A stretch of DNA of 64,000 nucleotides from Caldimicrobium sp. (lineage in GTDB: Bacteria; Desulfobacterota; Thermodesulfobacteria; Thermodesulfobacteriales; Thermodesulfobacteriaceae): NCBI GenBank assembly GCA_025060015.1, contig JANXDB010000066.1, positions 8,635-72,634 of the forward strand, in the 5' to 3' direction. A model generated the notes under the pieces. The model saw nothing but the letters and a program-made list of their open reading frames with translations, searched no databases and was not told the DNA's origin. The position numbers and the translations under genes were made by a program. Of this stretch, positions 60,369 through 64,000 are shown piece by piece (the first letter of the stretch is position 1; every line of letters starts with the position of its first letter).

Positions 60369-61676
60369 TTACTCAGTGATGGTGTATTTGTCGCCTACAA
60401 ATTCCACATTTGCCATGAGCACCTTTACATTTTCAAAGCCGAGATTTTTGAGAGCATTGTACCCCATTTCTGCCCTCACACCTGTTGCACAGTGCACATA
60501 TATGGGTTTGTCCTTGGGCAGCGTGTGGGCTTTCTGAGGTATATCGTCAACAGAGATATTTATGGCTCCCTTAAAATGACCTCTCTTGAATTCCTCTGGA
60601 GTTCTTACATCAACTATAACAGCAGATCCATCTTTAAGAGCCTTTTCAAAATCAGCTATGCTAACCTCAAAGGGTCTATAGGTTCTGACATAATGAATCT
60701 GTGTAGGAATAGGACCCTTCTTTACCTCTAAACCCTTAGCAGCCCATTCCTGTAAACCACCTGAATAGACTGTGACATTTGGATAGCCAAAGTCTTTTAT
60801 GATCTTAACTGCCTCAGCTAAATCCTCCTTTTTATCAGAGTAAATCACAATAGGAGCCTTGGTGTATGTGGGAAACTTTTCTTCAGCCTTAGACAGATCT
60901 TTCATAGGAATATTCACAGCTTTGGGAATATATCCTGTTTTAGCAATGGTTTGAGGATCTCTCAAATCGATTAGCACGATGTTTTCCTTCTGAATGTAGT
61001 CTGCTGTAGATTCTGTGTAGTATCCGGCCTTTTTCCATCCGGGCTCACCATCCATGTAAACTTTTACATTTTTAAAGCCCCATTTGACGGCAAGTCCTGC
61101 CGCCTTAGGACTCATAGTTCAGGTGGGCCCTCCACAATAGAAAATGACCAACTTGTCTTTGGCTATGTTTGCCAGTGTTTTTTCTCCCTCTTTTTCCATT
61201 ACAGTTACAGGGATGCTAATTGCCGTAGGTATATATGAGGCATGATATCTTGGCGCAGGCCTTGAATCAATTAAAACATAGGTTCCAGGGGATTCAAAAA
61301 CGAGCTTGGCCAATTCGGAGGTTTTGATCTCAGTAACTCCTTGAGGTAACTCAGCAATAGCTAATTTAATTAACTTTGCGATATTTTTACCATCAACAAC
61401 TACATACTTTACCTCTACCTCTTGACCCTGAATCTCCCTTATCTTCTTGGGATCAATGTGCTGAAAAACCGTCTTGTCATCGTATTTAATATTGATCTTT
61501 TTACCTGCATGATCCACTGTGATTGTCTGAATAGTTACCGCTACCGCAGATACCTGTCCCTTGATGGACTGCTCTTGAGCCATTGTTGATGTCACCCAAA
61601 GAGCAGACTGCAGAAGGGTCAAAATTAGAAATAATAAAAGAGCCCTCATACTTCGGAGACGAAACAGCTCCATCAT
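60369..61676 (-). CDS. Exported triple-rhodanese sulfurtransferase, predicted selenoprotein (435 aa, Sec186). Joins track ORFs 61119..61676 and 60369..61115
   Basis: TAT TGT GGA GGG CCC ACC TGA ACT ATG AGT CCT = YCGGPT-U-TMSP, in frame. Signal peptide, beta domain, rhodanese 1 (CxxxxU), rhodanese 2 (no Cys), rhodanese 3 (HCATGVRA). SECIS-like hairpin follows the UGA. Confidence 0.82.
61086..61121 (-). promoter_or_regulatory. Bacterial SECIS element candidate
   Basis: UGA + 14 nt + GGCGGCA-GGACU-UGCCGUC; the apical GCA-GGAC resembles the E. coli fdhF GCA-GGUC-UGC (recalled). Confidence 0.72.
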
Positions 61677-61718: not shown

Positions 61719-61746
61719 ATATTAACAATTTTTTATAAGCTGTCAA
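61719..61746 (-). promoter_or_regulatory. sigma70-type promoter for the rhodanese gene
   Basis: TTGACA-16 nt-TAATAT in AT-rich DNA; RBS GGAGGTG. Confidence 0.5.
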
Positions 61747-61856: not shown

Positions 61857-61941
61857 TGCCGAGGGCGGGAGTCGAACCCGCACGGGGGCGAACCCCAGTG
61901 GATTTTGAGTCCACCGCGTCTGCCAGTTCCGCCACCTCGGC
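61857..61941 (-). tRNA. tRNA-Leu (CAA)
   Basis: GCCGAGG acceptor stem, GTGGA-CTCAAAA-TCCAC anticodon arm, variable arm, GGTTCGACTCC; CCA not encoded. Confidence 0.96.
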
Positions 61942-61981
61942 TTATTATTAGTTTAATATCAAACATCAGCTTTACAAGGGG

Positions 61982-63211
61982 TTAATACTCTAAGATCCTC
62001 TTTTCCTCATGAACCAGGAACTCCATCCCAGATTTTACATGGTATTTTACCCTGGTTATAAGTTCAACTCTTCTCACGTCCCGAGGAAAGATGGCGTAAA
62101 ATCTCTCAGTGGTAACCTCTCGTGGAGGTAGAGAAAAATCAACGAGATCCTTTACCTCAAAAGAGACAAACCTTCTATTTCCATACCAGTCAAGTCCAAT
62201 TTCAAAATACTCTTTGTCGCCTTTCCACACCACCTTTCCTTTTTCATCAAGGGCAACGAGCTCAAGTATTACCTTAGATGTCCAATAACAACCATCAGGA
62301 ATGCGATGGCCAGCGTTATTAATTAGATCTACGGTTATTACCGCAGCAGGATTTCTCTTGGTGTGATCAGTGAGAGGTGCAAAGGGCTTGTATTCTATTA
62401 CATTCCTAACCTGCACGTTAAGCCCGATCCCTTCTTTTAGCATGTCTACCACATAGGTTCCCGGAAAGGTATGCCCACGATTTTTAGCCCTCATATGACA
62501 ATCCTGACAGGAGGATTGACCACCCATAGCCACATAGTGATCTCTATAGCTTTGGGCAATGGTGCTACAAAAAATTGGCTCACCGTCGGGAGCAAGGTAT
62601 GCTCCGTGACACTGCATACAAAAATTGGAATTTCCTATGTATGGATGTCTCTTAACGGCGTGAAAAGGCGACTGACCTTTACCTTTTGTGCCATACATTA
62701 CATTAGGTTCTGGCCTCTCCGGTGGATGAAGGGCCTTCATGTTGTGGCAAATATAACAGGTAACGGTAAGCCTTTCCAATAGATTTTTTGCCTTGCTATC
62801 TTTTTTCTCATAGTAATCAATCACCGCCTGGGCCACCTCTCTCATGAATTTCTCTGAAGCCTGCTCTAGCTGTGGTGCATGACAAACGAAACACTTCATA
62901 AGCTCTGCTTTGTAGCCTCCAGGTTTCTTGGCCCGAGCACTTCTCTCAGGATCATTAGGAACGGCATTTTTTATTTAGGAATAAATTATGTCGATGGAAT
63001 GCAAAATGCTCTGAGAATGCATAGAAACTTTCCACTGCTCGTAGACATCTCCATGACAACCTGCACACACATCTGCAGGCGGATAAAGTTGCTCAAGTTC
63101 ATCAATGCTATCCACAAGCTTACCCTTTTCAATACTAACTGGCGCTGAACTTACTTGGCCAAGTAAAAGAACTATCAATAAGAGTACGATACCAAAGGTC
63201 CACTTTTGCAT
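61982..63211 (-). pseudogene. Pentaheme cytochrome c, ExtKL/MccSep-like (Cys variant), interrupted by one in-frame TAA at 62975-62977
   Basis: Track ORFs 62975..63211 and 61982..62899 are in the same frame and joined by 25 open codons. Signal peptide; CAGCH, CFVCH, CYICH, CMQCH, CQDCH; AGHRIPDGC motif. Confidence 0.72.
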
Positions 63212-63499
63212 AGGCCCTCCTGATATTAAGTTATATTATTAAATTATGTAAGGTCATTTATATTATAACCTATTTTGATCAAGAGATAAATAGATTCCTT
63301 AATTTGTCAATACAAACTAAAATTAATAGTGAGGGTTTTCTTCTCATGGGGTGCGACCACTTTTCTTTGGTTTACATCAACTGGGTGGCATGGTAGTTCA
63401 TCTGGAAACTTAGTATTGATAAACCTTTTTTAGCTTTTTTTTAAGTCTCAATCGGCAAATTTGAGTAGATTGCACCTTGACTCAGAGAATTCCAAGTAA

Positions 63500-63516
63500 C
63501 GCACCTGACAGGTGCG
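63500..63516. promoter_or_regulatory. Perfect GC-rich palindrome, candidate operator
   Basis: CGCACCTG-A-CAGGTGCG in the divergent cytochrome/iorA intergenic region. Confidence 0.35.
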
Positions 63517-63596
63517 AAAAAAGGGGATTTCCATTCTCTTTATTTTAAAATTATTTCTGTTATATTTAATAAAAATTCATTCTGAGGGGTAAGTGT

Positions 63597-64000
63597 ATGA
63601 GCAAGGTTCTAATGCTGGGAACAGATGCCCTTGCAAGGGGAGCAATAGAGGCTGGCATCTCCTACGCTGCCTCCTATCCCGGAACACCTGCTACGCAGAT
63701 CTTGGAATATGTTGCCAAAAACAGCTCTGTTCCCTGCGAATGGTCAATAAACGAAAAAGTTGCCTTTGAGGTAGCTTATGGTGTTAGTCTTACAGGTAGA
63801 AGGGTCCTTTGCTCTATGAAACATGTTGGGCTTAATGTAGCTGCTGATCCCTTTATGACTTCCGCTTATCTCGGGGTAAGGGGTGGCTTTGTCTTGGCTA
63901 TTGGTGATGATCCAGGTGCCTATTCCTCACAGAATGAACAGGATTCTCGTTTTTATGCGCGTTTTGCCAAAATTCCCTGCCTTGAACCCTACGATGGAGA
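63597..64000 (+). CDS. iorA: Indolepyruvate:ferredoxin oxidoreductase alpha subunit, N-terminal part (runs off the right edge)
   Basis: My translation: MSKVLMLGTDALARGAIEAG...SYPGTPATQI...NEKVAFEVA...MKHVGLNVAADP...DDPGAYSSQNEQDSR. Confidence 0.92.
   Translation, partial: MSKVLMLGTDALARGAIEAGISYAASYPGTPATQILEYVAKNSSVPCEWSINEKVAFEVAYGVSLTGRRVLCSMKHVGLNVAADPFMTSAYLGVRGGFVLAIGDDPGAYSSQNEQDSRFYARFAKIPCLEPYDG

Follow-up and report, generated by a model that had tools for sequence, protein, structure and literature searches.

Near one end of the window analysed here, a 64,000-nucleotide stretch of contig JANXDB010000066.1 from Caldimicrobium sp., lies a minus-strand gene that its sequence identifies as a member of the ExtKL/MccSep family of multiheme cytochromes, of the type with cysteine (Cys) in place of selenocysteine (Sec), and that is interrupted at codon 79 by an in-frame TAA. 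Translation of the minus strand from 63211 to 61982 gave 409 codons followed by a terminal TAA, with one in-frame internal stop (SIDIIYS-stop-IKNAV) lying between HSQSILHSIDIIYS and IKNAVPNDPERSARAKK. The N terminus is hydrophobic, ends in VSS before an Ala and on inspection resembles a signal peptide of the Sec export pathway, predicting a periplasmic location. The gene and its parts are as follows:

61982..63211, minus strand: Cys-type extKL/mccSep gene, broken at codon 79 (translation, NF040886 and PDB MccSep match)
63216..63221, minus strand: Shine-Dalgarno-like AGGAGG, 4 nt upstream of the ATG (read from the sequence)
63146..63211, minus strand: putative signal peptide, codons 1-22, MQKWTFGIVLLLIVLLLGQVSS followed by AP (by inspection of the translation)
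63053..63067, minus strand: heme 1 motif CAGCH, residue 49, the sole heme site upstream of the stop
62975..62977, minus strand: premature TAA, codon 79; ancestral codon TAT (Tyr)
62975: polymorphic base of codon 79; on the plus strand, T gives the stop and A gives Tyr
62879..62893, minus strand: heme 2 motif CFVCH, residue 107; its His is H111, aligned with MccSep H122
62744..62758, minus strand: heme 3 motif CYICH, residue 152
62606..62620, minus strand: heme 4 motif CMQCH, residue 198
62567..62569, minus strand: Cys215 (TGT), in IFCSTIAQSY (residues 213-222), equivalent to MccSep C239 in alignments
62495..62509, minus strand: heme 5 motif CQDCH, residue 235
62288..62290, minus strand: Cys308 (TGT), in AGHRIPDGCYW (residues 300-310), equivalent to MccSep U325 in alignments
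62975..63211, minus strand: N-terminal open reading frame (ORF) that ends at the stop, 78 aa translated, about 56 aa once the signal is cleaved off, with one heme site
61982..62899, minus strand: residual 305-aa ORF from the ATG at codon 105, with hemes 2-5 and both active-site Cys

An earlier reading of the sequence, made without database searches (the sequence-only reading), had described a signal peptide, five CxxCH motifs, an extra Cys and AGHRIPDGC-YW in 409 codons, with a single TAA at 62975-62977, a TGT at 62288-62290 and 25 open codons after the stop; all of these are present in the translation, and the coordinates are right. Codons 80-104 are the 25 sense codons between the stop and ATG105, the start of the 305-aa ORF, which lacks a signal peptide, as that reading had also said of the C-terminal part. 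An exact-protein look-up returned no identical protein on record for this ORF.

TAA closes more of the window's long ORFs than any other stop codon (21 of 42) and terminates extKL itself, from which the genetic code of the window is standard; a reassignment of TAA was rejected on the same ground, TAA being the ordinary main stop here. A six-frame scan of the whole 64 kb found two gene-interrupting stops only, the TAA of extKL and a TGA in a neighbouring rhodanese gene (described below), and the assembly is therefore not error-ridden.

Family identity of the cytochrome

Membership of the ExtKL/MccSep family requires five heme motifs and a Sec/Cys site, and Cys-type members emerge inside Sec-type clades (bioRxiv 10.1101/2025.11.18.688581). 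Polysulfide reductase activity and a homotetrameric state are further features of the family. With the codon-79 stop replaced by X, the read-through protein matched the NCBIfam profile NF040886, 'multiheme c-type cytochrome (seleno)protein ExtKL', at 324.4 bits against a cutoff of 250, essentially end to end (protein residues 9-407, profile positions 8-420 of 423), and the Geobacter sulfurreducens MccSep structures 9wt8 and 9wt9 with an E value of 1e-39 over residues 31-378, while Pfam alone gave weak, sub-threshold multiheme matches only. These searches bear out the assignment to a Cys variant of ExtKL/MccSep that had been proposed from the letters alone.

In MccSep, heme 2 is His/Cys-ligated, with H122 as the proximal ligand of the catalytic heme and C239 as its distal Cys ligand, and U325, on a loop of the C-terminal immunoglobulin (Ig)-like domain, attacks polysulfide (bioRxiv 10.1101/2025.11.18.688581). 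We aligned the window protein with the solved MccSep chain and 16 relatives (18 sequences). All five CxxCH motifs align with those of MccSep and the relatives; the H122, C239 and U325 columns are occupied by H111, C215 and C308, placing the TGT noted earlier at the Sec-equivalent codon, and the H111 and C215 columns are invariant in 18 of 18 sequences. By analogy, heme 2 of the window protein would be ligated by H111 and C215. A Sec-type gene carries UGA at the 325-equivalent codon and a downstream selenocysteine insertion sequence (SECIS), and here the codon is TGT; a functional ExtKL/MccSep member has an uninterrupted frame, and here TAA stands at codon 79.

Structural modelling adds little beyond the sequence match. 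An AlphaFold2 (AF2) model of an intact relative (P0001, 89% identical) contains a confident beta-sandwich at residues 262-408, with a high predicted local distance difference test score (pLDDT), while the heme core, modelled without hemes, is at low confidence. When Foldseek compared this model with the PDB, the C-terminal domain matched only ApaG and other Ig-like beta-sandwiches, and MccSep itself was absent among the matches. The model thus supports the presence of a C-terminal Ig-like domain bearing the Cys loop. Taken with the profile, structure and alignment matches, the gene of this hot-spring Caldimicrobium (Thermodesulfobacteriota) is, on sequence grounds, orthologous to ExtKL/MccSep, the periplasmic pentaheme polysulfide reductase, and of the Cys type.

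The likeness to the G. sulfurreducens enzyme (GSU2937-2936; 9wt8, 9wt9) covers the signal peptide and five CxxCH motifs found in both, the heme-2 ligands (H122/C239, here H111/C215) and the AGHxIPDG-U/C loop that opens the Ig-like domain at the C terminus. The window protein differs in having Cys (TGT) for Sec, Asp at the R83 column and Ser for C240; K372 of MccSep lies one column off its invariant K354, the K372 column itself being V/I, with K354 one column later. In addition, no extI/J/M-S cluster surrounds the window gene, which is moreover broken at codon 79. Closer in type are the Cys homologues matching NF040886 (P0012 from Candidatus Magnetobacterium casense and proteins of Nitrospirota metagenome-assembled genomes (MAGs)), which are about 400 aa long, contain PDGC and are 46-52% identical to the window protein, but which belong to another phylum and are intact. 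Beyond the family, TsdA and SoxAX also use a catalytic Cys-ligated c-heme for S-S chemistry (bioRxiv 10.1101/2025.11.18.688581), although their reactions run in a different direction, their architecture is different and no detectable sequence relationship was found here.

Several columns separate the two types of ExtKL/MccSep. The R83 column holds D in the window protein and D/E in all Cys types aligned, P0012 and the Nitrospirota proteins included, but G in the aligned Sec types, usually with R two residues further; at position 240, Cys types have S versus N/C in Sec types; and Cys types, again including P0012 and the Nitrospirota proteins, have W two residues after the Cys (C-x-W). R83 and K372 orient the substrate in Geobacter MccSep, and the U325C and R83A variants of that enzyme are nearly inactive (bioRxiv 10.1101/2025.11.18.688581). 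The column differences hint at compensation for the missing Sec in natural Cys types, or at another substrate.

Origin and alleles of the internal stop

Close orthologues of the gene are intact, namely those of the MAG SKYB6 (L001) at 95%, P0001 at 89%, P0002 at 73% and P0003/L002 at 65% amino-acid identity. Codon 79 is TAT in the three orthologues whose DNA was read (L001, 95%; L025, 89%; L002, 65%), and P0002, available as protein sequence only, has Tyr at the same position. Across all 17 aligned relatives the position, which lies inside a predicted helix, is Tyr or Phe (F88 in MccSep). Orthologues consistently split at this point would have pointed to a genuine pair of genes, but every one read has TAT. 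Database matches of about 285-308 aa do exist, and all end at GHRIPDG; these are Sec-type genes that gene callers ended at the UGA, and their ends do not correspond to a split at the codon-79 position.

We then compared position 62975 across public hot-spring metagenome runs, using Logan contigs (unitigs with word depths) near-identical to the window:

Run X1: T at 62975, word depth 16.4; A, 22.7 of 39.1
Run X2: T at 62975, about 2.6; A, none seen
Run X3: T at 62975, none; A, 182 of 182
Run X4: T at 62975, 19.4; A, 51.7

In X1 the two alleles form a classic 61-nt bubble, the flanking unitigs stopping at 62974 and resuming at 62976. In X4, T lies on a 14.5-kb contig with 0 mismatches to the window and A on another strain. 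The A-bearing contig of X3 is otherwise identical to the window over 62774-62995, and the TAT haplotype of that run equals the window on every compared piece except 62975 and 62155. Four further runs of more distant strains (X5-X8) showed A only at 62975, and a scan of Joint Genome Institute (JGI) metagenome contigs found no close relative (best match 51% identical) and thus yielded no further allele counts. Besides the window, T at 62975 therefore occurs in contigs of three runs, representing three samples and two studies.

Because T was found in three independent runs, beside a TAT allele on an otherwise identical background, the TAA is a derived, genuine allele. It arose when one T of the coding strand changed to A, a transversion that converted Tyr79 (TAT) to TAA, and it segregates in nature beside the intact allele. 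A base-call, consensus or assembly error in an organism that is truly TAT is highly improbable and essentially excluded. The change is a single-base difference, as such an error would be, and the window record also has a private substitution (62155 C; T in all four runs), making it identical to no run examined; but the same T stands in contigs of three samples of two studies, with word depths of 16-19 in two of the runs and a 14.5-kb contig free of mismatches to the window, and there is no other broken gene in the rest of the 64 kb. Between the two explanations left standing by the sequence-only reading, a recent nonsense mutation and a base-call error, the first is upheld and the second falls away. 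Phase variation was considered and rejected, the change being a substitution and not a change in repeat length.

The gene otherwise carries the marks of constraint. Against SKYB6, the ratio of non-synonymous to synonymous substitution rates (dN/dS) was 0.095 when the gene was taken as a whole, 0.058 when only codons 80-409 were compared, and 0.14-0.27 in the short part upstream of the stop; 27 of the 32 single-nucleotide polymorphisms (SNPs) that separate co-occurring strains in extKL are synonymous; and the 409-codon frame contains no second lesion. These values indicate strong purifying selection on extKL in the clade. Since there is no sign of decay downstream of the stop (dN/dS 0.058), divergence data show the nonsense mutation to be very recent, in agreement with the nearly identical TAT haplotype and with the recent mutation proposed earlier, for which dN/dS on both sides of the stop had been suggested as a check.

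Two residues near the C terminus are set apart. The substitution at 62155 is a window-private non-synonymous change, I353V, beside the K372-equivalent lysine, and residue 351 (62160) is F in the window and Y in more distant relatives; both lie in the loop aligned to MccSep's K372 region. An early stage of relaxed constraint could account for them, as could mere strain variation; the I353V change is too little to call relaxed constraint.

Effect of the lesion and history of the gene

Modelled on the Geobacter enzyme, the intact protein would be exported by the Sec pathway and then have five c-type hemes attached; the heme chain would carry electrons to heme 2, with Cys215 as its distal ligand, where a Cys308-S(n)-Cys215 intermediate would be reduced and sulfide released. 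The TAA allele should yield only 78 residues, of which about 56, with a single heme site, would remain once the signal is removed. Attachment of c-type heme requires export (Sec/Ccm maturation), and because the 305-aa ORF has no signal peptide, any product of it would never reach the periplasmic heme-attachment machinery and would not be heme-matured. We infer that the TAA allele is null.

Two routes by which activity might survive were weighed. The stop could be read through, by a suppressor tRNA, leaky termination or recoding, so that full-length active enzyme is still made, and the frame past the stop is indeed open and intact, with no further lesion. A young mutation explains that intact frame equally well, however, given a TAT haplotype that is otherwise identical. 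Moreover, TAA is the main genuine stop here and ends extKL itself, no orthologue conserves a stop at codon 79, and the window contains no suppressor tRNA: Rfam at gathering thresholds matched two tRNAs only across the window, although no search was aimed at recoding signals. We consider read-through very improbable. Alternatively, the monoheme N-terminal part (78 aa) and the C-terminal part (305 aa) could be made separately and assemble. The sole GGAGG upstream of ATG105, at a distance of 16-20 nt, could serve such a start, but a good Shine-Dalgarno site would sit closer, the C-terminal ORF lacks the signal peptide that c-heme attachment demands, and none of the relatives has two genes parted at the codon-79 point, making a functional split exceedingly improbable.

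The gene appears to have a history separate from that of its surroundings. The MAG Caldimicrobium sp. SKYB6 (JANXCE010000010.1; L001:734-1963) is the closest genome, and its orthologue is 95% identical at the amino-acid and 94% at the nucleotide level and is followed, as in the window, by tRNA-Leu, a putative Sec-rhodanese gene, yihY and leuA; it differs in having TAT at codon 79 and an intact frame, and the flanking genes of the two genomes are only 72-75% identical at the nucleotide level. Positions ~61860-63200 of the window (extKL and tRNA-Leu) match L001:618-1990 at 90-98% nucleotide identity with sharp boundaries, and synonymous divergence (dS) is 0.23 for extKL but saturated for the rhodanese gene (proportion of synonymous differences, pS, 0.79). 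Because of these contrasts in identity and synonymous divergence, the data suggest that a segment of about 1.35 kb comprising extKL and the tRNA was recently exchanged between Caldimicrobium lineages.

SKYB6 also has a Sec-type ExtKL paralogue (P0005; L024:6001-7218 on JANXCE010000025.1, which is contig 25 of the MAG that also contains L001), seen as a 300-aa ORF ending at GHRIPDG, where the UGA lies, and then a 99-aa ORF. It adjoins genes for a molybdopterin oxidoreductase, an NrfD-type subunit and a 4Fe-4S subunit, a cluster resembling Psr-type polysulfide/thiosulfate reductases. As SKYB6 has this second enzyme, the null allele is probably tolerated through redundancy. A cultured species, Caldimicrobium thiodismutans, comes from hot springs and disproportionates sulfur (cited in PMC9676032).

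Overall, we regard it as very probable that the locus holds a Cys-type ExtKL/MccSep gene in which a young TAT-to-TAA null allele, probably tolerated through redundancy, segregates beside an intact one. Several points weigh against this account. The loss of the protein is deduced from the reading frame; the allele frequencies derive from unitig word depths and are hence rough, with the depth of X2 very low; and the redundancy idea is based on the SKYB6 paralogue, whereas the 64-kb window holds no such paralogue, nor any second extKL copy. Furthermore, given the Asp at the R83 column and the near inactivity of U325C, the substrate and mechanism of the Cys type, extrapolated from Geobacter, may differ.

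A different view of the same alleles is that the null allele is favoured or balanced, the loss of the reductase being advantageous under some spring conditions, with both alleles persisting. Such a view could draw on the allele shares, T making up ~40-60% in X1 and ~27% in X4, being the sole allele seen in X2 and absent in X3, in samples, years and studies that differ; and on the separate history of the extKL and tRNA segment (94% nucleotide identity to SKYB6 versus 72-75% in the flanks). Yet a neutral or mildly deleterious mutation hitch-hiking in a clonal bloom gives the same picture, purifying selection elsewhere in the gene is strong (dN/dS ~0.1), the informative runs number four, all as contigs, and their sampling sites are given as codes. 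We judge balanced or favoured loss unlikely, and give similarly low credence to its fuller form, in which the TAA would be a selectively maintained on/off polymorphism of a periplasmic sulfur-reducing cytochrome, in Caldimicrobium populations that disproportionate sulfur, and would have arisen on a recently species-swapped gene.

The adjoining rhodanese gene and significance of the locus

Downstream of extKL lie a tRNA gene and a second interrupted gene, for which the following features were recorded:

61857..61941, minus strand: tRNA-Leu(CAA), 40 nt downstream of extKL, in the segment highly similar to SKYB6
61719..61746, minus strand: TTGACA-16-TAATAT, promoter-like by consensus match only, upstream of the rhodanese gene
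60369..61676, minus strand: putative periplasmic rhodanese protein, 435 aa, three matched rhodanese stretches, in-frame TGA
61119..61121, minus strand: in-frame TGA of the rhodanese gene, a putative Sec codon that the SKYB6 orthologue shares
61075..61113, minus strand: SECIS-like hairpin, its start 11 nt beyond the UGA's first base

The two rhodanese ORFs (61676-61119, 185 aa; 61115-60369, 248 aa) form one gene. Its protein begins with a signal peptide, by inspection, and has the UGA in the context FYCGGPT-U-TMSPKAA, a UxxS motif; the coding frame past the TGA is conserved in SKYB6 as well. The SECIS-like hairpin has a folding energy of -20.8 kcal/mol (z -3.0), and 1 of 200 shuffles was as stable. 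In NCBIfam, the best matches of the protein fell below cutoffs and no equivalog was reached. 'Rhodanese-like domain protein form 1, UxxS' is a listed selenoprotein class (PMC13188914), and the window protein likewise has its UGA followed by xxS. The extKL cluster of Geobacter also encodes ExtH, a rhodanese-like protein of 49 kDa (PMC5877670), and ExtH (GSU2940) resembles the window protein in being a rhodanese of ~49 kDa beside extKL. The gene is probably an ExtH-like selenoprotein gene, one that automatic annotation would split.

This linkage is, among the loci sampled, not general: tblastn found a rhodanese beside extKL in SKYB6 as the sole match, and none at the other 21 genome loci. The rhodanese may plausibly act as a periplasmic sulfane-sulfur carrier feeding ExtKL. 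As the gene has its own promoter-like site, the extKL stop need have no polar effect on it, although a promoter scan of the window gave no enrichment over shuffles. On the other side of extKL, a 385-nt AT-rich intergenic stretch (63212-63596), in which a simple promoter scan found no promoter-like site and in which run X3 has a 7-nt insertion after 63267, separates it from a divergently transcribed gene starting at 63597 that, judged from its translation, is 2-oxoacid/indolepyruvate:ferredoxin oxidoreductase-like.

MccSep/ExtKL was shown only in 2025 to be the polysulfide reductase needed for sulfur respiration in Geobacter (bioRxiv 10.1101/2025.11.18.688581); the family, its Cys types and its enzymology are already known, and the lesion is an ordinary pseudogenising SNP. 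For annotation, the window gene is a pseudogene allele of extKL/mccSep and the two rhodanese ORFs are one probable selenoprotein. The locus documents in Caldimicrobium a Cys-type member under strong purifying selection, together with an adjoining putative rhodanese selenoprotein, and it supplies a predicted natural knock-out and an intact allele on an almost identical background, a ready-made comparison for testing function. If the polymorphism were indeed maintained, it would provide isogenic strains with and without a Cys-type MccSep, usable for examining the role of this enzyme in sulfur disproportionation.

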